The position numbers and the translations under genes are program-made. From Escherichia coli (lineage in GTDB: Bacteria; Pseudomonadota; Gammaproteobacteria; Enterobacterales; Enterobacteriaceae): a stretch of 64,000 nt of DNA. Of this stretch, positions 4,160-58,544 are shown one piece after another. Where the stretch lies: the NCBI RefSeq assembly GCF_016026235.1, contig NZ_CP065613.1. One strand, given 5' to 3'. The notes beneath the pieces are model-generated. The model was given only the letters and a program-made list of their open reading frames with translations, did not search any database and had not been told where the DNA came from. Within the stretch, counting starts at the first letter, position 1, and every line of letters starts with the position of its first letter.

Positions 4160-5824
<1,665 letters not shown>

Positions 5825-5911
5825 TTAATATGTCAAAAGATTGGCTATCGACGAACAGGCGAGGTAACGCTATGTTAACGGTGTAGCTATCAGAATACGG
5901 AAGGCGCGAAG

Positions 5912-6655
5912 ATGAAAAACACCGAACTGGAACAACTGATTAACGAAAAACTGAACAGCGCGGCGATTAGTGATTACGCGCCGAATGGTTTGCAGGTGGA
6001 AGGCAAAGAGACGGTGCAAAAAATTGTTACCGGTGTCACCGCCAGCCAGGCTTTGCTCGATGAGGCAGTGCGTCTGGGCGCGGATGCGGTCATTGTGCAT
6101 CATGGCTACTTCTGGAAAGGCGAATCTCCGGTCATTCGCGGAATGAAGCGTAACCGTTTAAAAACGTTGCTGGCAAATGATATCAACCTGTATGGCTGGC
6201 ATTTGCCGCTTGACGCACATCCTGAGCTGGGCAATAACGCACAGCTGGCGGCGTTACTGGGGATCACGGTCATGGGCGAAATTGAGCCGTTGGTGCCGTG
6301 GGGTGAGCTGACCATGCCTGTGCCGGGACTGGAGCTGGCTTCCTGGATTGAAGCGCGCCTGGGACGTAAGCCGTTATGGTGTGGCGATACCGGACCTGAG
6401 GTGGTCCAGCGTGTTGCCTGGTGCACGGGCGGCGGGCAAAGTTTTATCGATAGCGCCGCGCGTTTTGGCGTGGATGCTTTTATTACTGGCGAAGTTTCTG
6501 AACAGACCATTCATTCAGCCCGCGAGCAGGGATTGCATTTTTATGCTGCGGGTCACCATGCCACTGAACGCGGTGGTATTCGCGCGTTGAGCGAGTGGCT
6601 GAATGAAAATACCGATCTTGATGTGACCTTTATTGATATTCCTAATCCTGCATAA
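5912..6655 (+). CDS. ybgI: NIF3-family metal-binding protein (GTP cyclohydrolase 1 type 2 homolog)
   Basis: 247-aa ORF MKNTELEQLINEKLNSAAISDYAPNGLQVEGKE... Confidence 0.9.
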   Translation: MKNTELEQLINEKLNSAAISDYAPNGLQVEGKETVQKIVTGVTASQALLDEAVRLGADAVIVHHGYFWKGESPVIRGMKRNRLKTLLANDINLYGWHLPLDAHPELGNNAQLAALLGITVMGEIEPLVPWGELTMPVPGLELASWIEARLGRKPLWCGDTGPEVVQRVAWCTGGGQSFIDSAARFGVDAFITGEVSEQTIHSAREQGLHFYAAGHHATERGGIRALSEWLNENTDLDVTFIDIPNPA

Positions 6656-28141: not shown

Positions 28142-28214
28142 ATATCTGTAATAAGAAATAGCCCTCGCCGCTTCCCTCTACAGGAATGGCGAAGGGCTGT
28201 CGGTTTCGACATGG
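28142..28214 (+). ncRNA. sdhX: 5' portion of the sucD 3'-UTR sRNA region (SdhX/RybD), cut off from its terminator by IS1
   Basis: Begins right after the sucD stop and contains the hairpin gccctcgccgcttccctctacaggaatggcgaagggc; in uninterrupted loci this region runs on to the terminator now found at 28994-29018. Assignment rests on my memory of SdhX position, not on a covariance model. Confidence 0.4.
28206..28214. repeat. Left copy of the 9-bp IS1 target-site duplication (tcgacatgg)
   Basis: Identical 9-mer recurs at 28983-28991, immediately flanking both IS1 ends. Confidence 0.85.
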
Positions 28215-28269
28215 GGTAATGCTGCCAACTTACTGATTTAGTGTATGATGGTGATTTTAAGGTGCTTGC

Positions 28270-28545
28270 GTGGCTTCCATTTCCATCAGATGTCCTTCCT
28301 GCTCCGCTACTGAAGGCGTGGTGCGTAACGGCAAAAGCACTGCCGGACATCAGCGCTATCTCTGCTCTCATTGCCGTAAAACATGGCAACTACAGTTCAC
28401 TTACACCGCCTCTCAGCCCGGTACGCACCAGAAAATCATTGATATGGCCATGAATGGCGTCGGATGTCGCGCCAGTGCACGCATTATGGGCGTTGGCCTC
28501 AACACGGTTTTACGTCACTTAAAAAACTCAGGCCGCAGTCGGTAA
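28270..28545 (+). CDS. insA: IS1 InsA (transposition repressor; N-terminal part of the InsAB' transposase)
   Basis: 91-aa [43 protein letters not shown]... (zinc-finger and HTH). Confidence 0.93.
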
Positions 28546-28967
28546 CCTCGCGCATACAACCGGGCAGTGATGTGATTGTCTGCGCTGAAATGGACGAACA
28601 GTGGGGCTACGTCGGTGCTAAATCACGTCAGCGCTGGCTGTTTTACGCGTATGACAGGATACGGAGGACGGTTGTGGCGCACGTCTTCGGTGAACGCACT
28701 CTGGCCACACTGGAGCGTCTTCTGAGCCTGCTGTCGGCCTTTGAGGTCGTGGTATGGATGACGGATGGCTGGCCGCTGTATGAATCACGCCTGAAGGGAA
28801 AGCTGCACGTTATCAGCAAGCGTTACACTCAGCGCATTGAGCGACATAATCTGAATCTGAGACAACATCTGGCAAGGCTGGGACGGAAGTCACTGTCGTT
28901 CTCAAAATCGGTGGAGCTGCATGACAAGGTCATCGGGCATTATCTGAACATAAAACACTATCAGTAA
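28464..28967 (+). CDS. insB: IS1 InsB reading frame (expressed as the InsAB' transposase by -1 frameshift)
   Basis: 167-aa ORF in the -1 frame relative to insA, overlapping it; slippery ttaaaaaactc motif near 28520-28530. Confidence 0.9.
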
Positions 28968-28982
28968 GTTGGAGTCATTACC

Positions 28983-28991
28983 TCGACATGG
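28983..28991. repeat. Right copy of the 9-bp IS1 target-site duplication (tcgacatgg)
   Basis: Identical to 28206-28214. Confidence 0.85.
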
Positions 28992-44302: not shown

Positions 44303-44422
44303 TGCGAATCATAAGCAGTTGAGTGATCTGCATCGAAATTTTTGTTGCGCTCAAGTCTGAAATCAGTAATATATGCCGCCGTTGCCACGGGATATCAAAC
44401 AAACCGAAAGCAACGAAAAAGT

Positions 44423-44498
44423 GGGTCGTTAGCTCAGTTGGTAGAGCAGTTGACTTTTAATCAATTGGTCGCAGGTTCGAATCCTGCACGACCCACCA
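44423..44498 (+). tRNA. lysT: tRNA-Lys (anticodon UUU)
   Basis: gggtcgttagctcagttggtagagcagttgacttttaatcaattggtcgcaggttcgaatcctgcacgacccacca; cloverleaf with TTT anticodon and encoded CCA. Confidence 0.95.
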
Positions 44499-44526
44499 AT
44501 CGCTAAGGTGGAAGCGGTAGTAAAAC

Positions 44527-44598
44527 GTGAAGGATAACGTTGCATCAGCAACGGCCCGAAGGGCGAGACGAAGTCGAGTCATCCTGCACGACCCACCA
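44527..44598 (+). repeat. Spacer repeat copy 1 ending in a pseudo-tRNA-Lys 3' end
   Basis: gtgaaggataacgttgcatcagcaacggcccgaagggcgagacgaagtcgagtcATCCTGCACGACCCACCA; last 18 nt identical to the 3' end of tRNA-Lys. Confidence 0.8.
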
Positions 44599-44633
44599 CT
44601 AACATAGTTAGTTGTAGTATCCAGCGTAGTATT

Positions 44634-44709
44634 GGGTGATTAGCTCAGCTGGGAGAGCACCTCCCTTACAAGGAGGGGGTCGGCGGTTCGATCCCGTCAT
44701 CACCCACCA
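44634..44709 (+). tRNA. valT: tRNA-Val (anticodon UAC)
   Basis: gggtgattagctcagctgggagagcacctcccttacaaggagggggtcggcggttcgatcccgtcatcacccacca. Confidence 0.95.
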
Positions 44710-44711
44710 CC

Positions 44712-44787
44712 GGGTCGTTAGCTCAGTTGGTAGAGCAGTTGACTTTTAATCAATTGGTCGCAGGTTCGAATCCTGCACGACCCACCA
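44712..44787 (+). tRNA. lysW: tRNA-Lys (anticodon UUU)
   Basis: Identical to the lysT sequence; starts 2 nt after valT. Confidence 0.95.
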
Positions 44788-44815
44788 GTTTTAGCATCGA
44801 AGACAGATGTTAAGC

Positions 44816-44885
44816 GTGTAGGATAACGTTGCGTCAGCAACGGCCCGTAGGGCGAGCGAAGCGAGTCATCCTGCACGACCCACCA
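44816..44885 (+). repeat. Spacer repeat copy 2 ending in a pseudo-tRNA-Lys 3' end
   Basis: Near-identical to copy 1, with a few substitutions. Confidence 0.8.
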
Positions 44886-44936
44886 CTAATTACGGTGGGT
44901 TCGGTGGAAGTAGTTTGTAGTATCCAGCGCAGTATC

Positions 44937-45012
44937 GGGTGATTAGCTCAGCTGGGAGAGCACCTCCCTTACAAGGAGGGGGTCGGCGGTTCGATCCCGT
45001 CATCACCCACCA
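44937..45012 (+). tRNA. valZ: tRNA-Val (anticodon UAC)
   Basis: Identical to the valT sequence. Confidence 0.95.
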
Positions 45013-45015
45013 CTC

Positions 45016-45091
45016 GGGTCGTTAGCTCAGTTGGTAGAGCAGTTGACTTTTAATCAATTGGTCGCAGGTTCGAATCCTGCACGACCCACCA
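45016..45091 (+). tRNA. lysY: tRNA-Lys (anticodon UUU)
   Basis: Identical to the lysT sequence; 3 nt after valZ. Confidence 0.95.
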
Positions 45092-45119
45092 ATTTTAACA
45101 TCAAACTCAGATGTTAAGC

Positions 45120-45189
45120 GTGAAGGATAACGTTGCGCCAGCAACGGCCCGAAGGGCGAGCGAAGCGAGTCATCCTGCACGACCCACCA
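45120..45189 (+). repeat. Spacer repeat copy 3 ending in a pseudo-tRNA-Lys 3' end
   Basis: Near-identical to copies 1 and 2. Confidence 0.8.
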
Positions 45190-45237
45190 ATCTTAAAGAT
45201 TGGCCCCGAGTAAAAATCTTTCAGGTAACACCCGTAT

Positions 45238-45313
45238 GGGTCGTTAGCTCAGTTGGTAGAGCAGTTGACTTTTAATCAATTGGTCGCAGGTTCGAATCCT
45301 GCACGACCCACCA
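45238..45313 (+). tRNA. lysZ: tRNA-Lys (anticodon UUU)
   Basis: Identical to the lysT sequence. Confidence 0.95.
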
Positions 45314-45346
45314 TCCTGAATGATTAAAGCAGCATAATCCCGCAAG

Positions 45347-45422
45347 GGGTCGTTAGCTCAGTTGGTAGAGCAGTTGACTTTTAATCAATTGGTCGCAGGT
45401 TCGAATCCTGCACGACCCACCA
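45347..45422 (+). tRNA. lysQ: tRNA-Lys (anticodon UUU)
   Basis: Identical to the lysT sequence; last gene of the array. Confidence 0.95.
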
Positions 45423-45424
45423 AT

Positions 45425-45455
45425 GTAAAAAAGCGCCCTAAAGGCGCTTTTTTGC
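45425..45455 (+). terminator. Rho-independent terminator of the tRNA array
   Basis: aaaaaagcgccctaaaggcgcttttttg, a perfect hairpin with T-tract 3 nt after lysQ. Confidence 0.8.
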
Positions 45456-45609
45456 TATTCAGGCATCTCTCAATTTCAATTCTTGACCCTGATGACATAC
45501 TCCGCGCTTGCTGCGTAAACAACTTTACGTCGGAGGAATAAGACGCAAAGTGTGGCATTCGGCATCTCATACGTAATTCGAGTGACTTTTCCCCACCATT
45601 CGACTATCT

Positions 45610-45627
45610 TGTTTAGCATATAAAACA
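45610..45627. promoter_or_regulatory. Probable NadR operator upstream of nadA
   Basis: TGTTTA-gcatat-AAAACA, close to the TGTTTA-N6-TAAACA palindrome, about 75 nt upstream of the nadA start. Confidence 0.5.
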
Positions 45628-45699
45628 AATCACGCCGATAACAGCGAATATCACGCTAATGTCGGTTTTAACGTTAAGCCTGTAAAACGAGATGGTAAG

Positions 45700-46743
45700 A
45701 TGAGCGTGATGTTTGATCCAGACACGGCGATTTATCCTTTCCCCCCGAAGCCGACGCCGTTAAGCATTGATGAAAAAGCGTATTACCGCGAGAAGATAAA
45801 ACGTCTGCTAAAAGAACGTAATGCGGTGATGGTTGCCCACTACTATACCGATCCCGAAATTCAACAACTGGCAGAAGAAACCGGTGGCTGTATTTCTGAT
45901 TCTTTGGAAATGGCGCGCTTCGGTGCAAAGCATCCCGCCTCTACGTTGTTAGTCGCTGGGGTGAGATTTATGGGAGAAACCGCCAAAATTCTCAGTCCGG
46001 AAAAAACAATTCTGATGCCGACACTTCAGGCTGAATGTTCACTGGATCTCGGCTGCCCTGTTGAAGAATTTAACGCATTTTGCGATGCCCATCCCGATCA
46101 TACTGTCGTCGTCTACGCCAACACTTCTGCTGCGGTAAAAGCGCGGGCAGATTGGGTGGTAACTTCAAGCATTGCCGTCGAACTTATTGATCATCTGGAT
46201 AGTTTGGGTGAAAAAATCATCTGGGCACCCGACAAACATCTGGGGCGTTACGTGCAAAAACAGACGGGCGCAGACATTTTATGCTGGCAGGGTGCCTGCA
46301 TTGTGCATGATGAATTTAAGACTCAGGCGTTAACCCGCTTGCAAGAAGAATACCCGGATGCTGCCATACTGGTGCATCCAGAATCACCACAAGCTATTGT
46401 CGATATGGCGGATGCGGTCGGTTCCACCAGTCAACTGATCGCTGCTGCGAAAACATTGCCACATCAGAGGCTTATTGTGGCAACCGATCGGGGTATTTTC
46501 TACAAAATGCAGCAGGCGGTGCCAGATAAAGAGTTACTGGAAGCACCAACCGCGGGTGAGGGCGCAACCTGCCGCAGCTGCGCGCATTGTCCGTGGATGG
46601 CCATGAATGGCCTTCAGGCTATCGCAGAGGCATTAGAACAGGAAGGAAGTAATCACGAGGTTCATGTCGATGAGAGGCTGCGAGAGAGGGCGCTGGTGCC
46701 GCTCAATCGTATGCTGGATTTTGCGGCTACACTACGTGGATAA
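45700..46743 (+). CDS. nadA: Quinolinate synthase A
   Basis: 347-aa [66 protein letters not shown]... Confidence 0.96.
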
Positions 46744-46780
46744 CGAATAATAAGGCGTAACGTTACGCTTTGGGGGAAAG

Positions 46781-47500
46781 ATGGATTTTTTTAGTGTGCA
46801 GAATATCCTGGTACATATACCAATAGGGGCGGGCGGTTATGATCTCTCATGGATCGAAGCGGTAGGCACGATCGCCGGGTTGCTGTGTATTGGCCTTGCC
46901 AGTCTGGAGAAGATCAGCAACTACTTCTTTGGCCTGATCAACGTCACCTTGTTTGGCATTATTTTCTTTCAGATTCAGCTGTATGCCAGCCTGCTATTAC
47001 AGGTGTTTTTCTTTGCCGCGAATATTTACGGTTGGTATGCGTGGTCGCGACAAACCAGTCAGAACGAGGCGGAGTTGAAAATTCGCTGGTTGCCATTGCC
47101 GAAGGCGCTAAGCTGGTTGGCGGTTTGCGTTGTTTCGATTGGTCTGATGACGGTATTTATCAATCCGGTGTTTGCATTTTTGACCCGCGTGGCAGTCATC
47201 ATCATGCAAGCATTAGGATTACAGGTTGTAATGCCTGAACTGCAACCGGACGCTTTCCCGTTCTGGGATTCATGCATGATGGTGTTATCTATCGTGGCAA
47301 TGATTCTGATGACGCGTAAGTATGTGGAAAACTGGCTGTTGTGGGTGATTATTAACGTGATTAGCGTCGTTATTTTTGCACTTCAGGGCGTTTACGCCAT
47401 GTCTCTGGAGTACATCATCCTGACCTTTATTGCGCTCAACGGCAGCCGGATGTGGATCAACAGCGCACGTGAAAGAGGCTCACGCGCGCTGTCCCATTAA
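46781..47500 (+). CDS. pnuC: Nicotinamide riboside transporter PnuC
   Basis: 239-aa hydrophobic [47 protein letters not shown]...; downstream of nadA. Confidence 0.93.
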
Positions 47501-48438
47501 TGGTGATGATGTGAATGGCCAGACACCCCTTCATTCAGGTGGCAGTCTGGCCCATGACAAGGTTGATATTCCATCTGAATGGTGGCGTGCTCAATCTGAT
47601 AGTGATCCATCAGGTAGTGTTGGATCTGATCCAACAAGGCATCGTGATCGTGTGGCGGGATCACCTGCACATGCAACGTCATCACCGGCTTCTCGCCTAC
47701 CATCCATACATGCACATGGTGCACATTGCGGACTTCCGGGATTTCCCGGCACATACGACGCTTCAGTTCAGCGATATCCAGCGATACCGGTGCACCCTCA
47801 AGTAATTCATTCACGCTATCTTTCAACAGTCGCCACGCGCTACGCAGAACCAGAAGCGACACCAGTATCGAGAGAATGGGGTCAGCAGGTGTCCAGCCGG
47901 TCCAGATAATAATCAACGCGGCAATAATAGCCCCAACCGAACCCAGCAGGTCCCCGAGCACATGCAGTGCCGCTGCGCGCACGTTGAGGTTTTTCTCTTC
48001 GCTGCCGTGATGAAGTAACCAGAAAGAAAGTATATTTGCCAGCAACCCAGCCACGGCAATTGCCATCATCATGCCGCCCTCGACCGGACGCGGCGTGCGG
48101 AAGCGTTCAATCGCCTCCCAGACAATCAAAATGGTAATTACCACGAGGGCGATGGCATTCACAAACGCCGCGAGCGTGGTCAGTCTTAGCCAACCGAAAG
48201 TGTGGCGAATGGTGGGAGGACGACGTGAAAATTGCACGGCGAGTAGGGCGAAAAGCAGGGCGGCAGTATCGGTCAACATATGACCCGCATCGGCCAGCAA
48301 AGCCAGAGAACCAGAAAGAAAACCACCAATGACTTCTACCAGCATAAACCCGGCAGTCACGCCGAAAGCATACAACAAGCGACGAGCATTATTATCTTCT
48401 GGCAGGTGTGAGGACGTGTGTGAGTGTGAGTGCGCCAT
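47497..48438 (-). CDS. zitB: Zinc efflux transporter ZitB (cation diffusion facilitator family)
   Basis: 313-aa [60 protein letters not shown]... with His-rich termini; 3' end overlaps the pnuC 3' end by 4 nt. Confidence 0.93.
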
Positions 48439-48551
48439 GACGAGTCATCCCTTAATTATTCTCACTTAACTTTATGACATCTTACTGCTTTTAGAAGGGA
48501 AAAATTAAAAGGGAGAGACTCCGCTCTCCCATTATTGGCTATTTTGCAGGG

Positions 48552-48932
48552 TTACTGCGTAGTACCGTCGGTTTTGGTATCGACATCATTATTGATGCCA
48601 TCACCGGTTTGTACCTTTTTATTGATATCCGGGCAGCGACCATCTTTGCACATGGTGTTCTTGTGCTCTTCATATTTGGTCATGCCATCATTGTTCATTG
48701 AAGAACCATCCGGATGCAGCATAGTGCCGCCAGAACCGGTATTTACCCCGTTATTGTCGACGTTATTTGGCGCGACATTTTCACGGGCGTCAGGGGCTAC
48801 CTGGCCCGCATCAGCTGCGGCGTTTGCCTGGCCGTTATTGGTTTGCGCTCCGCTATCGGCAGCCAGTGCGGCACCGCTGGCAAGGCTTAGAGTGGCAGTC
48901 AGAAATAGTGTGGCCAGTTTTGTCATTTTCAT
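48552..48932 (-). CDS. ybgS: Secreted low-complexity protein YbgS (function unknown)
   Basis: 126-aa [27 protein letters not shown] (signal peptide), Asn/Gly/Asp-rich mature region. Confidence 0.85.
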
Positions 48933-49159
48933 AGGATGCTCCTGTTATGGTCGTTATGTCGGATAACCTCTTCCAACAGTGCATTTGCAGGTGAATATAA
49001 GGCATTGGTTTAAGATTTCAGCCAGGCAAAGAAATCCAGCAGAGAATCTTGAAATAATTAACAAACAAAGGAGTTACAGTTAGAAATTGTAGGAGAGATC
49101 TCGTTTTTCGCGACAATCTGGCGTTTTTCTTGCTAATTCCAGGATTAATCCGTTCATAG

Positions 49160-49177
49160 TGTAAAACCCCGTTTACA
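49160..49177. promoter_or_regulatory. TyrR box in the aroG promoter
   Basis: TGTAAA-accccg-TTTACA, perfect match to TGTAAA-N6-TTTACA, about 70 nt upstream of the aroG start. Confidence 0.7.
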
Positions 49178-49247
49178 CATTCTGACGGAAGATATAGATT
49201 GGAGGTATTGCATTCACTAAGATAAGTATGGCAACACTGGAACAGAC

Positions 49248-50300
49248 ATGAATTATCAGAACGACGATTTACGCATCAAAGAAATCAAAGAGTTACTTCC
49301 TCCTGTCGCATTGCTGGAAAAATTCCCCGCTACTGAAAATGCCGCGAATACGGTTGCCCATGCCCGAAAAGCGATCCATAAGATCCTGAAAGGTAATGAT
49401 GATCGCCTGTTGGTGGTGATTGGCCCGTGCTCAATTCATGATCCTGTCGCGGCTAAAGAGTATGCCACTCGCTTGCTGGCGCTGCGTGAAGAGCTGAAAG
49501 ATGAGCTGGAAATCGTAATGCGCGTCTATTTTGAAAAGCCGCGCACCACGGTGGGCTGGAAAGGGCTGATTAACGATCCGCATATGGACAATAGCTTCCA
49601 GATCAACGACGGTTTGCGTATTGCCCGTAAATTGCTGCTCGATATTAACGACAGCGGTCTGCCAGCTGCGGGTGAATTCCTCGATATGATCACTCCTCAG
49701 TATCTCGCTGACCTGATGAGCTGGGGCGCAATTGGTGCACGTACCACGGAATCGCAGGTGCACCGCGAACTGGCGTCTGGTCTTTCTTGTCCGGTAGGTT
49801 TTAAAAATGGCACAGACGGTACGATTAAAGTGGCTATCGATGCCATTAATGCCGCCGGTGCGCCGCACTGCTTCCTGTCCGTAACTAAATGGGGGCATTC
49901 GGCGATTGTGAATACCAGCGGTAACGGCGATTGCCATATCATTCTGCGCGGCGGTAAAGAGCCTAACTACAGCGCGAAGCACGTTGCTGAAGTGAAAGAA
50001 GGGCTGAACAAAGCAGGTCTGCCAGCTCAGGTGATGATCGATTTCAGCCATGCTAATTCGTCCAAACAATTCAAAAAGCAGATGGATGTTTGTGCTGACG
50101 TTTGCCAGCAGATTGCCGGTGGCGAAAAGGGCATTATCGGTGTGATGGTGGAAAGTCATCTGGTTGAAGGCCATCAGAGCCTGGAGAGCGGGGAGCCGCT
50201 GGCCTATGGTAAGAGCATCACCGATGCCTGCATTGGCTGGGAAGATACCGATGCTCTGTTACGTCAACTGGCGAACGCAGTGAAAGCGCGTCGCGGGTAA
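49248..50300 (+). CDS. aroG: Phe-sensitive 3-deoxy-7-phosphoheptulonate (DAHP) synthase
   Basis: 350-aa ORF MNYQNDDLRIKEIKELLPPVALLEKFPATENAANTVAHARKAIHKILKGNDDRLLVVIGPCSIHDP... Confidence 0.96.
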   Translation: MNYQNDDLRIKEIKELLPPVALLEKFPATENAANTVAHARKAIHKILKGNDDRLLVVIGPCSIHDPVAAKEYATRLLALREELKDELEIVMRVYFEKPRTTVGWKGLINDPHMDNSFQINDGLRIARKLLLDINDSGLPAAGEFLDMITPQYLADLMSWGAIGARTTESQVHRELASGLSCPVGFKNGTDGTIKVAIDAINAAGAPHCFLSVTKWGHSAIVNTSGNGDCHIILRGGKEPNYSAKHVAEVKEGLNKAGLPAQVMIDFSHANSSKQFKKQMDVCADVCQQIAGGEKGIIGVMVESHLVEGHQSLESGEPLAYGKSITDACIGWEDTDALLRQLANAVKARRG

Positions 50301-50315
50301 GGTTTCATTGTTGGA

Positions 50316-50400
50316 TGCGCCGCATGGATGGCGCATCCGATGAATAACCGTAGGTCTGATAATATGCGAGCGTCGCATCAGGCAGTGCTTCGTGGTTAGC
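50316..50400. repeat. REP/BIME palindromic units after aroG
   Basis: gatgcgccgcatggatggcgcatc and gtaggtctgataatatgcgagcgtcgcatcaggc. Confidence 0.75.
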
Positions 50401-50407
50401 GACGAAA

Positions 50408-50450
50408 AACAAAAAAGCCGACTCATTTGCAGTCGGCTTTCTCATTTTTA
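50408..50450. terminator. Bidirectional intrinsic terminator between convergent aroG and gpmA
   Basis: aaaaaagccgactcatttgcagtcggctttctcattttt; hairpin flanked by A-run and T-run. Confidence 0.75.
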
Positions 50451-50462
50451 AGCGAATAACGT

Positions 50463-51215
50463 TTACTTCGCTTTACCCTGATTAGCAACCGCCGCTGCTT
50501 TCGCCGCGATCTCGTCAGCATTACCCAGATAATAACGTTTCAGCGGTTTGAAGTTCTCGTCGAACTCATATACCAGCGGCACGCCAGTCGGGATATTCAG
50601 CTCAAGAATCTCTTCTTCGCTCATGTTATCGAGATATTTCACCAGCGCACGTAACGAGTTACCGTGTGCAGCGATGATTACGCGCTCACCGCTCTTCATA
50701 CGCGGCAGAATGGTTTCATTCCAGTAAGGGATCACGCGGTCAATAGTCAGCGCCAGGCTTTCAGTCAGCGGCAGCTCTTTCTCGCTTAGTTTCGCGTAAC
50801 GCGGATCGTGACCCGGATAACGCTCATCATCTTTGGTCAGTTCCGGCGGAGTCACTGCAAAACCACGACGCCACTGTTTCACCTGCTCGTCGCCATACTT
50901 TTCAGCAGTTTCCGCTTTGTTCAGACCCTGCAACGCACCGTAGTGACGTTCGTTCAGTTTCCAGGATTTCTCAACGGGCAGCCATGCCTGATCCAGTTCG
51001 TCCAGCACATTCCACAGGGTATGGATAGCACGTTTCAGCACAGAGGTGTAAGCAAAGTCAAAGCTGTAACCTTCCTCTTTCAGCAGCTTACCTGCTGCTT
51101 TTGCTTCGCTTACGCCTTTCTCAGACAGATCCACGTCGTACCAACCGGTGAAACGGTTTTCTTTGTTCCACTGACTTTCGCCATGACGAACCAGAACCAG
51201 CTTAGTTACAGCCAT
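50463..51215 (-). CDS. gpmA: 2,3-bisphosphoglycerate-dependent phosphoglycerate mutase
   Basis: Track ORF 50463..51230; start at [25 protein letters not shown] (catalytic His in the RHGE motif), 250 aa. Confidence 0.96.
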
Positions 51216-51240
51216 ATACTTACTCCTCAAATCATCTTTT

Positions 51241-51261
51241 AATGATAATAATTCTCATTAT
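51241..51261. promoter_or_regulatory. Probable Fur box upstream of gpmA
   Basis: aatgataataattctcattat resembles the GATAATGATAATCATTATC consensus; 25-45 nt upstream of the gpmA start. Confidence 0.55.
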
Positions 51262-51417
51262 ATTGCCGTGACGAAGCAACAGCAATGCTTACGCATAACC
51301 ATAGCGAAAATAGTGTCGCAGTGTAAGGTTGTTGTGAATATTGAGTTGCAAATATGTCGGTGTTTGCTGGTGATTTGAACAATACAAGGGGAAAGCCCTC
51401 ATCGCGAGGGCTTAAAC

Positions 51418-52458
51418 TTACTCAGCAATAAACTGATATTCCGTCAGGCTGGAATACTCTTCACCAGGATGCAGGAAGCAGTCCGGTTGCGGCCATTCAG
51501 GGTGGTTCGGGCTGTCCGGCAGAAACTCGCTTTCCAGAGCCAGCCCTTGCCAGTCGGCGTAAGGTTCGGTTCCCCGCGACGGTGTGCCGCCGAGGAAGTT
51601 GCCGGAGTAGAATTGCAGAGCCGGAGCGGTGGTGTAGACCTTCAACTGCAATTTTTCATCTGCTGACCAGAGATGTGCCGCCACTTTTTTGCCATCGCCT
51701 TTGGCCTGTAACAAGAACGCGTGATCGTAACCTTTCACTTTGCGCTGATCGTCGTCGGCAAGAAACTCACTGGCGATGATTTTGGCGCTGCGGAAATCAA
51801 AAGACGTTCCGGCGACAGATTTCAGGCCGTCGTGCGGAATGCCGCCTTCATCAACCGGCAGATATTCGTCCGCCAGAATCTGCAACTTGTGATTGCGCAC
51901 GTCAGACTGCTCGCCGTCAAGATTGAAATAGACGTGATTAGTCATATTCACCGGGCAAGGTTTATCAACTGTGGCGCGATAAGTAATGGAGATACGGTTA
52001 TCGTCGGTCAGACGATATTGCACCGTCGCGCCGAGATTACCCGGGAAGCCCTGATCGCCATCATCTGAACTCAGGGCAAACAGCACCTGACGATCGTTCT
52101 GGTTCACAATCTGCCAGCGACGTTTGTCGAACCCTTCCGGGCCGCCGTGCAATTGGTTGACGCCCTGACTTGGCAACAGCGTCACGGTTTCACCGTCAAA
52201 GGTATAACGGCTATTGGCGATGCGGTTAGCATAACGACCAATAGAGGCCCCCAGAAACGCGGCCTGATCCTGATAGCATTCCGGGCTGGCACAGCCGAGC
52301 AGCGCCTCGCGGACGCTGCCATCGGAAAGCGGAATACGGGCTGAAAGTAAAGTCGCACCCCAGTCCATCAGCGTGACTACCATCCCTGCGTTGTTACGCA
52401 AAGTTAACAGTCGGTACGGCTGACCATCGGGTGCCAGTGCGGGAGTTTCGTTCAGCAC
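51418..52458 (-). CDS. galM: Aldose 1-epimerase (galactose mutarotase)
   Basis: 346-aa [59 protein letters not shown]... Confidence 0.95.
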
Positions 52459-53600
52459 TGTCCTGCTCCTTGTGATGGTTTACAAACGTAAAAAGTCTCT
52501 TTAATACCTGTTTTTGCTTCATATTGTTCAGCGACAGCTTGCTGTACGGCAGGCACCAGCTCTTCCGGGATCAGCGCGACGATACAGCCGCCAAATCCGC
52601 CGCCGGTCATGCGTACGCCACCTTTGTCGCCAATCACAGCTTTGACGATTTCAACCAGAGTGTCAATTTGCGGCACGGTGATTTCGAAATCATCGCGCAT
52701 AGAGGCATGAGACTCCGCCATCAACTCGCCCATACGTTTCAGGTCGCCTTGCTCCAGCGCGCTGGCAGCTTCAACGGTACGGGCGTTTTCAGTCAGGATA
52801 TGACGCACGCGTTTCGCCACGATTGGGTCCAGCTCATGTGCAACAGCGTTGAACTCTTCAATGGTGACATCGCGCAGAGCTGGCTGCTGGAAGAAACGCG
52901 CACCGGTTTCGCACTGTTCACGACGGGTGTTGTATTCGCTGCCAACCAGGGTACGTTTGAAGTTACTGTTGATGATGACGACAGCCACACCTTTCGGCAT
53001 GGAAACTGCTTTGGTCCCCAGTGAGCGACAGTCAATCAGCAAGGCGTGATCTTTTTTGCCGAGCGCGGAAATAAGCTGATCCATGATCCCGCAGTTACAG
53101 CCAACAAACTGGTTTTCTGCTTCCTGACCGTTAAGCGCGATTTGTGCGCCGTCCAGCGGCAGATGATAAAGCTGCTGCAATACGGTTCCGACCGCCACTT
53201 CCAGTGAGGCGGAAGAACTTAACCCGGCACCCTGCGGCACGTTGCCGCTGATCACCATGTCCACGCCGCCGAAGCTGTTGTTACGCAGTTGCAGATGTTT
53301 CACCACGCCACGAACGTAGTTAGCCCATTGATAGTTTTCATGCGCGACAATGGGCGCATCAAGGGAAAACTCGTCAAGCTGATTTTCATAATCGGCTGCC
53401 ATTACGCGAACTTTACGGTCATCGCGTGGTGCACAGCTGATCACGGTTTGATAATCAATCGCGCAGGGCAGAACGAAACCGTCGTTGTAGTCGGTGTGTT
53501 CACCAATCAAATTCACGCGGCCAGGCGCCTGAATGGTGTGAGTGGCAGGGTAGCCAAATGCGTTGGCAAACAGAGATTGCGTTTTTTCTTTCAGACTCAT
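52452..53600 (-). CDS. galK: Galactokinase
   Basis: 382-aa [52 protein letters not shown]... (GHMP kinase). Confidence 0.96.
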
Positions 53601-53603
53601 TTC

Positions 53604-54650
53604 TTACACTCCGGATTCGCGAAAATGGATATCGCTGACTGCGCGCAAACGCTCTGCTGCCTGTTCTGCCGTCAGATCACGCTGGGTTTCTGCCAGCATT
53701 TCATAACCGACCATAAATTTACGTACGGTGGCGGAGCGCAACAGAGGCGGATAAAAGTGCGCGTGCAGCTGCCAGTGTTGATTCTCTTCGCCATTAAATG
53801 GCGCGCCGTGCCAGCCCATAGAGTAGGGGAAGGAGCACTGGAAGAGGTTGTCATAACGACTGGTCAGCTTTTTCAACGCCAGCGCCAGATCGCTGCGCTG
53901 GGCGTCGGTCAAATCGGTGATCCGTAAAACGTGGGCTTTGGGCAGCAGTAGCGTTTCGAACGGCCAGGCAGCCCAGTAAGGCACTACGGCTAACCAGTGT
54001 TCGGTTTCAACAACGGTACGGCTACCGTCTGCCAGCTCGCGCTGAACATAATCCACCAGCATTGGTGATTTCTGCTCGGCAAAATATTCTTTTTGCAGGC
54101 GGTCTTCGCGCTCAGCTTCGTTAGGCAGGAAGCTATTTGCCCAAACCTGTCCGTGCGGATGCGGGTTAGAGCAGCCCATCGCCGCGCCTTTATTTTCAAA
54201 GACCTGCACCCATGGGTACGTTTTCCCCAGTTCTGCGGTTTGCTCCTGCCAGGTTTTGACGATTTCCGTCAATGCCGCAACACTGAGCTCTGGCAGCGTT
54301 TTACTGTGATCCGGTGAAAAGCAGATCACCCGGCTGGTACCGCGCGCGCTCTGGCAACGCATCAAAGGATCGTTGCTTTCTGGCGCATCTGGCGTGTCAG
54401 ACATCAAGGCCGCAAAGTCATTAGTGAAAACGTAAGTCCCGGTGTAATCGGGGTTTTTATCGCCTGTCACCCGCACATTACCTGCGCAGAGGAAGCAATC
54501 TGGATCGTGCGCAGGTAACACCTGTTTGGCTGGCGTTTCCTGCGCCCCCTGCCAGGGGCGCTTAGCGCGGTGCGGTGAAACCAGAATCCATTGCCCGGTG
54601 AGCGGGTTGTAGCGGCGATGTGGATGATCAACGGGATTAAATTGCGTCAT
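53604..54650 (-). CDS. galT: Galactose-1-phosphate uridylyltransferase; its own ATG and RBS are intact but the upstream galE frame runs into it
   Basis: C-terminal 348 residues of the 704-aa track ORF 53604..55718, beginning [35 protein letters not shown]... with the HPH active-site motif. Confidence 0.9.
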
Positions 54651-54659
54651 GGTCGTTCC

Positions 54660-55676
54660 TTTATCGGGATATCCCTGTGGATGGCGTGACTGCCAGTGCC
54701 AGGTGTCCTGCGCCATTTCATCGAGTGTGCGCGTTACGCGCCAGTTCAGTTCACGGTCGGCTTTGCTGGCGTCCGCCCAGTAGGCCGGAAGGTCGCCCTC
54801 GCGACGCGGTGCAAAATGATAGTTAACCGGTTTGCCGCAGGCTTTGCTGAAGGCATTAACCACGTCCAGCACGCTGCTGCCTACGCCAGCACCGAGGTTG
54901 TAGATGTGTACGCCTGGCTTGTTCGCCAGTTTTTCCATCGCCACGACGTGACCGTCCGCCAGATCCATTACGTGGATGTAATCGCGTACGCCAGTACCGT
55001 CTTCGGTCGGATAATCGTTACCAAAAATCGCCAGCGAGTCGCGACGGCCTACAGCAACCTGGGCGATGTATGGCATCAGGTTATTCGGAATGCCTTGCGG
55101 ATCTTCGCCCATATCGCCCGACGGATGCGCGCCAACCGGGTTGAAGTAGCGCAGCAGGGCAATGCTCCAGTCCGGCTGGGCTTTTTGCAGATCGGTGAGG
55201 ATCTGTTCCACCATCAGCTTGCTTTTGCCGTAAGGGCTTTGCGGTGTGCCGGTCGGGAAGCTTTCAACGTATGGAATTTTGGGCTGATCGCCATAAACGG
55301 TGGCGGAGGAGCTAAAAATAAAGTTTTTGACGTTAGCGGCGCGCATGGCGCTAATCAGGCGCAGAGTACCGTTGACATTGTTGTCGTAATATTCCAGCGG
55401 TTTTTGTACCGATTCGCCAACGGCTTTCAGCCCGGCGAAGTGGATCACGGTGTCGATAGCGTGATCGTGCAGGATCTCGGTCATCAACGCTTCGTTACGG
55501 ATATCGCCTTCAACAAACGTTGGATGTTTGCCGCCTAAACGCTCGATAACAGGCAGTACGCTGCGCTTACTGTTACAGAGGTTATCAAGAATGATGACAT
55601 CATGACCGTTTTGCAGTAATTGCACACAGGTATGACTTCCAATGTAACCGCTACCACCGGTGACCAGAACTCTCAT
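54660..55676 (-). CDS. galE: UDP-glucose 4-epimerase reading frame with no stop codon (continues in frame into galT)
   Basis: Residues 15-352 of the 704-aa track [24 protein letters not shown] (NAD Rossmann motif) to ...[13 protein letters not shown], then KGTT, then the GalT start Met; the expected stop position 54660-54662 is a sense codon (AAA). Confidence 0.85.
55642..55657. promoter_or_regulatory. gal internal operator OI (GalR/GalS site) inside the galE coding region
   Basis: Minus-strand GTGGTAGCGGTTACAT about 20-35 nt into galE. Confidence 0.7.
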
Positions 55677-55754
55677 AATTCGCTCCATTAGGCTTATGGT
55701 ATGAAATAACCATAGCATAACAAAGATGCGAAAAGTGTGACATGGAATAAATTA

Positions 55755-55770
55755 GTGGAATCGTTTACAC
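55755..55770. promoter_or_regulatory. gal external operator OE (GalR/GalS site) in the galP1/P2 promoter region
   Basis: Minus-strand GTGTAAACGATTCCAC about 80-95 nt upstream of the galE start; spacing to OI about 113 bp. Confidence 0.7.
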
Positions 55771-55937
55771 AAGAGTTTAGCCATTTTTTATGTGCGATTA
55801 AGTGATTATAAAACAGAGGCTTTATGAATGATTGCGCTTTTTATCTGAAAAAAAGACGCGGTTTCATGTCTGCATGCGTCGAACCGTTGGCCGGATAGGG
55901 CGCTTAGGCCGCCTCCGGCAAGGTCAGCACTACCGAC

Positions 55938-57410
55938 TCAATATATTTTTGTCAGCACATAGCGATAGAGTCCACCGTCCGGCACGAACTCAAGACGATG
56001 GGTAATACAGGCAGGCGCATCTTCAGCGTGGTGCGAAACAAACAACAATTGCGTTTCACCTTCGCTAATCAGCACATCAACAAAACGGCGGATAAGCTGG
56101 CGATTCAGCGGATCAAGCCCCTGTAGTGGTTCATCGAGAATAAGCAACGTCGGATGTTTCACCAGTGCGCGGACAATCAGCGCCAGACGCTGCTGTCCCC
56201 AGGAAAGACTATGGAACGGAGCGTCAGCCGTGCGTTTATCAATGCCGAGAATATCCAGCCACTGCTGCACCAGTTTTTGCTGGCGATCCGAAACGGCCTG
56301 ATAAATGCCAATCGAATCAAAATAGCCAGAAAGAATCACATTACGCACAGTAGTACTGACCCGGTAATCCAGATGCAAACTACTGCTGACGTAACCGATA
56401 TGCTTTTTGATATCCCAGATGGTTTCGCCGCTGCCACGACGTCGTCCGAAAAGCGTCAAATCGTTGCTGTAACCTTGCGGATGATCGCCAGTAATCAGGC
56501 TTAATAACGTCGATTTTCCCGCGCCATTTGGCCCGATAATTTGCCAGTGTTCACCTGGATTCACCTGCCAGCTAAGGTTATTAAGAATGGGGCGATCGTT
56601 ATAAGAAACCACGCCATTATTCAGCACAATGCGCGGTTCGTTGGCGGGTAAGGCGTGACGTGCTGAAGGTTCATCCGGCTCCGGCAGTTGCACACCTTCA
56701 AGCTGTTCACTATGCGCCAGTTGCGCGACGAGTGCTTGTTGGAGCAGCTCCTCTTTAGCGCCAGTTTCCGCTAACGTGCAATCCGCCAGCACGCCAGCAA
56801 ACTGGACAAATTCCGGGATCTCATCGAAGCGATTGAGCACCAGTACCAGAGTAATACCGGACTGATGTAACGAGGCGAGTCGCTCAGCCAGCTGCTGACG
56901 TGAGGCAACATCCAGGCCATCGAACGGCTCATCAAGAATCAACAAGTCAGGCTCCGACATCAGCGCCTGACACAGCAGGGTTTTTCGCGTCTCGCCAGTG
57001 GAAAGGTATTTAAAGCGTCGGTCGAGGAGGGCGGTAATACCGAACTGCTGTGCCAGTTGCATGCAGCGCGGTGCATCCTTTACTTCATCCTGAATAATCT
57101 CAGCCGTAGAGCGTCCGGTGTCATCTTCGCCAGGGCCGAGCATATCGGTGTTATTCCGCTGCCATTCGTCGCTGACGAGCTTTTGCAATTGCTCGAAGGA
57201 GAGACGAGTGATGTGGGAAAACTGGCTTTGCCGTTCACCTTTCAAAAGCGGAAGTTCCCCCGCCAGCGCGCGGGCCAGCGCCGATTTCCCGCTTCCATTC
57301 GAACCGACAAACGCCCAACTATCCCCCGCGTTTAACGTTAGCTGAGGCAATTGCAGCGTTTTTGTGTCGCCAAGACGAAACGTGCCTTGCAAGATTTGCA
57401 ATGATGACAT
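55938..57410 (-). CDS. modF: ABC-type ATPase ModF (two ATP-binding cassettes)
   Basis: Track ORF 55938..57422; start at MSSLQILQGTFRLGDTKTLQLPQLTLNAGDSWAFVGSNGSGKS (Walker A); second Walker A GPNGAGKST. Confidence 0.9.
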   Translation of the reverse strand: MSSLQILQGTFRLGDTKTLQLPQLTLNAGDSWAFVGSNGSGKSALARALAGELPLLKGERQSQFSHITRLSFEQLQKLVSDEWQRNNTDMLGPGEDDTGRSTAEIIQDEVKDAPRCMQLAQQFGITALLDRRFKYLSTGETRKTLLCQALMSEPDLLILDEPFDGLDVASRQQLAERLASLHQSGITLVLVLNRFDEIPEFVQFAGVLADCTLAETGAKEELLQQALVAQLAHSEQLEGVQLPEPDEPSARHALPANEPRIVLNNGVVSYNDRPILNNLSWQVNPGEHWQIIGPNGAGKSTLLSLITGDHPQGYSNDLTLFGRRRGSGETIWDIKKHIGYVSSSLHLDYRVSTTVRNVILSGYFDSIGIYQAVSDRQQKLVQQWLDILGIDKRTADAPFHSLSWGQQRLALIVRALVKHPTLLILDEPLQGLDPLNRQLIRRFVDVLISEGETQLLFVSHHAEDAPACITHRLEFVPDGGLYRYVLTKIY

Positions 57411-57477
57411 TTTATATCCCATTTTGTGCAGCGATTACTGACAGGGATACGTGTTTCATAACAAATTGTCAACACGC

Positions 57478-58266
57478 TTAGCACAGCGTGGCGATAATCA
57501 CGCTGTCGGCATTAAAGTAGGCCGTGACATTCTGTCCTTGCTGAAGAGAAGTCGCTTCATTTACCGGCACTGTGGCGCACAGTGTTTGCCCGTCCGGTAG
57601 TGCCATTAATACTTCGCACTGCTCTGCGCCGCGCTCAATATGGCTAATAATACCCGGTAATTGGTTGTCAGCGTTTTGCGCGACCGCTTCGTCCTGAGTA
57701 ATGCCTACCCACGGCGCTTTTAGCAATATCAACACTTCTTTGCCTTCATCCAGCCCCAGACGCGCGCCGCTTTGTGCGGTAATTGCGACTTTCAGGCGTG
57801 TTTTTCCATCAGCCAGTAAGACATCAACATGCTGTTGAACGTCATCATGATCGCGGGCGGTGATGGTACCGAACCACTGGTTACGGGCGCTGGTTTGCAG
57901 TGAAAAACGTGAGATCGCGGCCAGCAGGCTGTTCAGCGGCAGGGCGTCATCGTAACTTAACACATCAAAGGCTTTTTGCTGGATTTGCGCCAGTAAGTCA
58001 TAGAGCTGAATCAGTCGCTGACCATAGCGGGTCAGTACTGCGCCGCCGCCACCTTTACCGCCTGTTGCGCGCTCGACCAGAATATGCTCACTTAACTGAT
58101 TCATCTCGTTAATGGCATCCCAGGCGCTTTTATAGCTGATACCGGCATCTTTCGCTCCCTGGCTAATGGAACCGGAAAGCGCAATGTGTTTTAGTAGCGA
58201 AATGCGGCGCGGGTCGGCGAATAATTTTTGTTGGAGCTTAAGGGTGAGAAGGATTTCGGCCTGCAT
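57478..58266 (-). CDS. modE: Molybdate-responsive transcriptional regulator ModE
   Basis: 262-aa ORF MQAEILLTLKLQQKLFADPRRISLLKHIALSGSISQGAKDAGISYKSAWDAINEMNQ (HTH) plus two Mop domains. Confidence 0.95.
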   Translation of the reverse strand: MQAEILLTLKLQQKLFADPRRISLLKHIALSGSISQGAKDAGISYKSAWDAINEMNQLSEHILVERATGGKGGGGAVLTRYGQRLIQLYDLLAQIQQKAFDVLSYDDALPLNSLLAAISRFSLQTSARNQWFGTITARDHDDVQQHVDVLLADGKTRLKVAITAQSGARLGLDEGKEVLILLKAPWVGITQDEAVAQNADNQLPGIISHIERGAEQCEVLMALPDGQTLCATVPVNEATSLQQGQNVTAYFNADSVIIATLC

Positions 58267-58376
58267 AACAATGTCCTGGCAAAAGTCTTATTGTGACGGA
58301 AAACGAACGCCACGCAAAGCTGACCGCACAAAAGGGGAGTGCTTTTCTGTGCTTAGCGGTTAGAATAGTCTCATGA

Positions 58377-58544
<168 letters not shown>

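Follow-up and report, generated by a model that had tools for sequence, protein, structure and literature searches.

What becomes of an operon when the stop codon between two adjacent, in-frame genes is lost? The question is raised by the gal operon in a 64,000-nucleotide stretch of Escherichia coli DNA (contig NZ_CP065613.1, assembly GCF_016026235.1; hereafter the window), where galE, encoding UDP-glucose 4-epimerase, runs without a stop codon into galT, encoding galactose-1-phosphate uridylyltransferase. Textbooks use the gal operon as their model of operon polarity, translational coupling and Rho termination. The explanation that best accounts for the observations overall is an inherited T→A stop-loss, giving a near-neutral fusion allele in which both enzyme moieties are likely to be active; we regard this as likely, though well short of certain.

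The galE–galT junction

Read directly, the minus strand from 54665 to 54648 is GAT AAA GGA ACG ACC ATG, in the wider context CAG GGA TAT CCC GAT AAA GGA ACG ACC ATG ACG CAA. The codon AAA (Lys339; TTT on the plus strand) at 54660–54662 occupies the former position of the galE stop, and the galT ATG follows 9 nucleotides downstream of it in the same frame. The wild-type junction had been given in the initial annotation as GAT TAA GGA ACG ACC ATG; this is indeed the sequence in K-12 MG1655, O157:H7 TR01 and FDAARGOS_943. Alignment with these three genomes and re-reading of the junction show that TAA→AAA is the only change, a T→A transversion at window position 54662 (gal coordinate 1041), so that the proposal of a single substitution converting the stop to lysine is borne out. 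Both the minus-strand reading and the open reading frame (ORF) listing agree with the further claim that galT is in frame with galE and that no stop lies between them. The parts of the fused gene are as follows.

53604–55676, minus strand: fused galE–galT frame, 690 codons plus a TAA stop at 53604–53606, GalE(1–338)-KGTT-GalT(1–348)
54663–55676, minus strand: galE moiety, codons 1–338, MRVLV...QGYPD, identical in amino acid sequence to WP_001265443.1
54660–54662, minus strand: former galE stop, now AAA (Lys339), with T→A at 54662
54651–54662, minus strand: former intercistronic spacer, now a Lys-Gly-Thr-Thr linker by direct translation
53607–54650, minus strand: galT moiety, 348 codons, MTQFNPV...RESGV, with its own ATG at 54648–54650

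The listed ORF (53604–55718, minus strand, 704 amino acids) contains all of GalE, then KGTT, then all of GalT. One continuous frame of this composition had been described at a length of 704 codons; the continuity stands and the length does not. The true galE start (MRVLV) is at 55676, giving a product of 690 amino acids, and the 14 extra codons are an in-frame run of the 5′ untranslated region that is common to K-12. Versions of 704 and 694 amino acids are missing from the public protein collection, in which the 690-residue version is present; GenBank STL97467.1 is this exact product, annotated merely as ‘galactose-1-phosphate uridylyltransferase’. The computed mass is 77.2 kDa, as the earlier estimate of about 77 kDa had it, made up of GalE (37.2 kDa), the 4-residue linker and GalT (39.6 kDa). 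A stand-alone 338-residue GalE ending at its own stop is not encoded here, as the chain runs on into GalT. In this frame, ribosomes translating galE cannot terminate before the galT stop.

Occurrence and inheritance of the allele

The exact 690-residue protein is encoded on 16 contigs, one of more than 1 Mb (the longest, at 4.56 Mb) and 15 of 10–50 kb, the smaller ones being Logan short-read assemblies. The contig from SRR3000442 (SRR3000442_24) shows two differences in 8,073 bases from the window, at 58460 and 50756; contig and window both carry AAA, while FDAARGOS_943, O157:H7 TR01 and K-12 carry TAA in the same galE–galT alignment. At 58460 the SRR3000442 contig has the base found in FDAARGOS_943. 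It follows that the stop codon was lost before at least one single-nucleotide polymorphism (SNP) arose in the line leading to the window. Whether the change was real or a sequencing error had been left open; the 15 further short-read assemblies, one of them distinguishable from the window, speak for a real allele, and from these sequences a one-off sequencing error is very unlikely to be the source of the AAA codon.

The allele is rare. Complete genomes were searched with 55-mers centred on the variant base, so that no 28-base megablast seed could match without covering it. The AAA, CAA and GAA 55-mers matched none of 5,426 complete E. coli genomes, and the TAA 55-mer matched 5,390 of the 5,391 that have the region. 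Metagenome contigs, scanned for an exact 37-mer, gave no match. We found no other E. coli-type stop-loss fusions, although any that lie inside 90%-identity GalE clusters are not enumerable; the window's own protein sits in such a cluster, represented by a 338-residue GalE.

The closest complete genome, that of E. coli FDAARGOS_943, differs by 13 substitutions and 0 indels over 18,062 bp, TAA→AAA being among them. Alignment with K-12, O157:H7 TR01 and FDAARGOS_943 identifies TAA→AAA as the sole change in galE–galT that is specific to the lineage of the window, this polarisation of SNPs covering the galE–galT sites only. No additional damage to either gene was found; galT I7V and A150V are derived in FDAARGOS_943 and not in the window. 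Within the gal–mod stretch (45238–63299), 9 of the 12 coding differences from FDAARGOS_943 are nonsynonymous, examples being modC C49R, modB G193S, galM Q306L, ybgS D87Y and pnuC V218A. This excess in the compared sequences points to strains that split very recently or to a relaxation of purifying selection.

State of the two enzyme moieties

GalE, an enzyme of the SDR superfamily, binds NAD through a GxxGxxG motif and has Ser124, Tyr149 and Lys153 as catalytic residues; in the fusion, GGSGYIG at 7–13, S124, Y149 and K153 are all present. In GalT, which belongs to family 1 of the HIT superfamily, the nucleophile lies in the HPH motif (His164-Pro-His166) together with Gln168, and the metal ligands are C52, C55 and H115 along with E182, H281, H296 and H298; C52, C55, H115, H164, H166, Q168, E182, H281, H296 and H298 are all retained. 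The amino acid sequence of the GalE moiety is that of the allele WP_001265443.1 of FDAARGOS_943 and O157:H7 TR01 and, the stop codon aside, both moieties have the sequences of ordinary alleles. Residues 1–338 match the solved E. coli GalE chains (1UDC/1XEL/1NAH type) over 1–338 with E ~1e-234, residues 343–690 match solved E. coli GalT (1HXP/1HXQ/1GUP) over 1–348 with E ~1e-245, and Pfam finds PF01370, PF01087 and PF02744 in the product.

An AlphaFold2 (AF2) monomer model gives both domains with confidence, with a mean predicted local distance difference test score (pLDDT) of 89.8 and a predicted template modelling score (pTM) of 0.56. Residues 341–348, at the linker, have pLDDT below 50, indicating that in the model the linker is a flexible tether and that the orientation of the domains is not fixed. 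It is most likely, judging from the sequence and by analogy with known fusions, that the two moieties fold independently on this tether and keep their activities. Since the moieties are otherwise wild type and a deep natural family of fusions with a shorter join exists (see below), activity would be expected to be retained, and the fusion is probably active.

Translation and transcript ends at the junction

Window positions are obtained as 55703 minus the gal coordinate, a conversion verified on the E-hairpin. The relevant features are:

54657–54661, minus strand: galT Shine–Dalgarno (SD) core AAGGA, kept; the wild type pairs UAAGGA, here AAAGGA
54664–54672, minus strand: 5′ ends of galTKM mRNA generated by RNase E (gal 1,031 and 1,039; PMC7681074)
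54542–54561, 54531–54537 and 54520, minus strand: E-hairpin, galE-mRNA 3′ ends and Rho-dependent termination site, respectively (PMC9239205), all in early galT and identical to K-12

The initial annotation took the galT SD and ATG to be intact, and both the AAGGA core and the ATG are in fact kept. One flanking pair is lost from the duplex between SD and anti-SD, which has an energy of −5.6 kcal/mol with AAA as against −6.1 kcal/mol in the wild type. A weakened galT ribosome-binding site or a refolded junction was considered as a major factor and rejected, the loss at the SD being only 0.5 kcal/mol and the predicted changes in accessibility small. The galT SD lies 5 nucleotides downstream of gal position 1,039 (PMC7681074). 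At that RNase E site the SNP at 54662 alters the +3 U (U1041) of the consensus, AUU becoming AUA. From this sequence change, cleavage at 1,039 may be weakened and processing of the junction thereby altered, quite apart from the missing stop.

Exactly this mutation has been engineered. The galE stop0 allele (PMC9239205, Lim laboratory, mBio 2022) has the identical UAA→AAA change in the same local context and gives the same fused frame. It was built for work on transcription–translation coupling and placed on a single-copy plasmid in a K-12 host deleted for gal, whereas the allele in the window is chromosomal, natural and inherited. With galE stop0 in the K-12 gal operon, galE mRNA 3′ ends stood at 50% and galE mRNA at 60% (PMC9239205), RNA 3′ ends and galE mRNA being the only readouts. 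The conclusion drawn there was that Rho-dependent termination at +1183, in early galT, is inhibited when translation continues over the junction; in the wild type this termination stops ~10.7% of transcription (PMC9239205).

The window shares with galE stop0 the UAA→AAA change and has the galT SD and AUG, the E-hairpin and the termination region unchanged. Between synonymous differences at columns 939 and 1353 of the galE–galT alignment, it is the same as K-12 apart from the SNP, and the E-hairpin folds here as GCGCCCCU-GGCA-GGGGGCGC. As the E-hairpin and termination region are identical to those of K-12, the RNA result obtained with galE stop0 should transfer to the natural allele.

Comparison with other fusions of Leloir enzymes

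A search of 1.84 billion representative sequences found a natural GalE–GalT fusion, P0034, of 722 amino acids, together with GalK–GalT (P0061, P0075 and P0024) and GalE–GalM (P0066) fusions. In a second search, GalE–GalT fusions of ~715–730 amino acids filled dozens of 90%-identity clusters, extending down to ~50% identity, in Latescibacterota, Poribacteria and Gemmatimonadetes (metagenome-assembled genomes) and others, and smaller groups with other lengths were also found. The P0034-type proteins bear no annotation beyond ‘UDP-glucose 4-epimerase’ or ‘galactose-1-phosphate uridylyltransferase’. A literature search within one library of papers found no description of a natural galE stop-loss allele or of natural or engineered GalE–GalT fusion enzymes.

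Like the protein of the window, members of the P0034-like family are single chains with PF01370 followed by PF01087/PF02744 and a short join. They differ from it, however, in being 33–36% identical to it, in having ~40 extra residues in the GalE part, and in the join itself. From the PxGY of GalE to the R(Y/F)NP of GalT, the main natural family has 6 residues (RVVQEE-like), whereas the window has 18, consisting of the whole GalE C-terminus, the translated spacer and the whole GalT N-terminus, that is, of unmodified E. coli ends. The low identity and the different join do not support common descent, and show the window fusion to be of independent origin, analogous to the family rather than a member of it. 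It is a very recent accident, days to centuries old, while the P0034-like family is ancient and conserved.

In the GalK–GalT fusions adjacent Leloir enzymes are also joined, but with GalK N-terminal and GalT C-terminal. Yeast Gal10p (PDB 1Z45) likewise has GalE at the N-terminus of a two-enzyme Leloir fusion; its partner is an aldose 1-epimerase/mutarotase (GalM-like) rather than GalT, and it is eukaryotic and long established. No solved structure of a GalE–GalT fusion was found, yeast Gal10 being the nearest bifunctional relative in the PDB.

Proposed explanation and alternatives

We propose that an inherited T→A change turned the initial U of the galE stop codon UAA into A, giving AAA (Lys). 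In the resulting frame every ribosome on galE continues through Lys-Gly-Thr-Thr into galT and releases a 690-residue, 77-kDa polypeptide. Free GalE would no longer be made, except through proteolysis, and free GalT would arise only by internal initiation at the kept SD and AUG, on mRNA crossed by elongating ribosomes. With the identical mutation in K-12, the early galT RNA stays covered by ribosomes, and Rho termination at +1183 and the galE-only mRNA are roughly halved. More transcripts would then reach galTKM, the polarity of the operon would be flatter, and there would be one GalT moiety for each GalE moiety. The allele is most likely near-neutral or mildly deleterious and would have become fixed in a small lineage with active insertion sequences (IS) rather than by adaptation. 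The lineage is IS-active and mildly decaying, which favours drift over adaptation as the reason that the allele persists.

Several points weigh against this explanation. GalE and GalT are each homodimers, and tethering one to the other can lead to open-ended polymers or to aggregation. Of 5,391 genomes carrying the region, 5,390 have T as the opening base of the stop, which is compatible with selection against fusion. The natural family is ~35% identical and has a specialised join, and its viability is no proof for an accidental fusion; secondary decay in the gal genes, or the want of it, says little in so young a lineage; and the readouts in PMC9239205 for the identical mutation are of RNA only. 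A stronger form of the proposal, in which a change of one nucleotide marks the ‘birth’ in E. coli of a bifunctional Leloir enzyme that functions, is inherited stably and flattens gal polarity, is one that we hold only tentatively and think rather doubtful.

Among the alternatives, the one that survives best, although we consider it unlikely, is loss of function: the 77-kDa chain would misfold, aggregate or polymerise, with the loss of GalE and much of the GalT activity, and the change would be a pseudogenising lesion fixed by drift in a strain that is Gal-negative, galactose-sensitive or altered in its lipopolysaccharide (LPS). Such a lesion would be in keeping with a lineage that has IS1 and IS5 insertions and pseudogenes (a ybgQ stop in both strains; dtpD and kdpA disrupted in FDAARGOS_943), with the preponderance of nonsynonymous differences in the 18-kb gal–mod stretch (9 of 12), with the absence of the variant from the 5,426 complete genomes, and with a frame from which free GalE cannot be made. 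It is harder to reconcile with moieties that are otherwise common functional alleles with all of the checked catalytic residues present, with intact galK and galM, and with the survival of the allele in two or more distinguishable isolates as they diverged further. The AF2 model, with two well-folded domains on a flexible tether, and the conservation across phyla of natural fusions having the same domain order and a shorter join, also argue against it.

Still less probable is an adaptive fusion, selected for a fixed GalE:GalT stoichiometry, for higher distal gal expression through suppressed Rho termination or for direct transfer of UDP-hexose between the sites. The same architecture has been fixed independently and retained in a deep natural family, but the linker in the window shows no sign of optimisation. 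The identical laboratory mutation lowers premature termination in galT, but the lineage shows relaxed selection. Several sequenced isolates share the allele; however, they form a single small clade, with no match in the complete E. coli genomes (0 of 5,426) or the metagenome scan, and the 16 contigs may represent the sampling of one outbreak or strain collection.

Long-read sequencing errors are mostly indels, and the accession series of the protein may point to an NCTC long-read project. An error of sequencing or assembly in the window's own assembly, the true codon being TAA, would need no more than a one-base difference within one assembly, but was rejected on the evidence of independent assemblies and is scarcely credible given the same exact product on 15 further short-read contigs, the DNA of one of which was read directly and differs from the window at other sites, making it a separate assembly, and given the 0 indels in 18 kb against the nearest genome.

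Significance of the allele

The inherited stop-loss allele reproduces in nature a mutation already engineered and published, and is an independent, recent case of an old architecture. Its novelty is limited because the identical mutation has been built in the laboratory and other bacteria have natural fusions of a similar kind. A naturally circulating equivalent of galE stop0 nevertheless provides an in-genome test of conclusions drawn from plasmids, and a clean example of adjacent in-frame cistrons becoming a multidomain protein through one point mutation. In a strain lacking free GalE, the galactose phenotype could be altered, as the initial annotation suggested, and the galactosylation of LPS and the sensitivity to phage or serum could also be affected. 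Current understanding would be unchanged unless the fusion had an unexpected phenotype; a distinct phenotype or selective value would raise the interest of the allele. Should the ‘birth’ interpretation be true, the allele would have reached in one step an architecture long since fixed in other phyla, and would offer a natural system for the origin of fusion proteins from operon neighbours, whether initially neutral, costly or beneficial.

Neighbouring genes and the lineage

The two genes following galT in the operon are:

52452–53600, minus strand: galK, 382 amino acids, intact
51418–52458, minus strand: galM, 346 amino acids, intact

Their lengths equal those in the K-12 and FDAARGOS_943 annotations, so the remainder of the operon is preserved.

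Compared across its full length with FDAARGOS_943, the window shows ~41 substitutions in ~62 kb, one 24-bp indel in tolA and several differences in the presence or absence of IS elements. An IS1 at 28214–28984 (InsB-like ORF at 28464–28967), between sucD and mngR, is absent from FDAARGOS_943, and the alignment blocks flanking it share 9 bp where the element is inserted, as would be expected of a target-site duplication. FDAARGOS_943 has an IS5-family element in kdpA (window position 845), an IS1 that replaces the N-terminus of dtpD (window 5548–6640) and a further IS1 near gltA/ybgD (window 16007–16015); the window has none of these, and its kdpA and dtpD are intact. These differences indicate that IS activity has continued since the strains split.

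The ybgQ fimbrial usher gene (12810–15311, minus strand) has an in-frame premature stop at 14334–14336 that divides it into ORFs of 325 and 501 amino acids, and it is also annotated as a pseudogene with an internal stop in FDAARGOS_943. The 24-bp difference in tolA (~40675) is an in-frame difference in length, presumed to be in a repetitive region. In the lysT–valT tRNA cluster (44400–45430) the arrangement of copies differs from that in FDAARGOS_943, giving overlapping and offset BLAST blocks, and this repeat probably explains the contig breaks at ~18 kb in the short-read assemblies of the lineage. Directly after ybhA, at the place occupied by pgl in K-12, there is a tyrosine-recombinase ORF (62289–63416, minus strand). 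Similarity to FDAARGOS_943 stops at 63299, where that genome has an IS600, and the region 62289–64000 probably marks the boundary of an integrated element.

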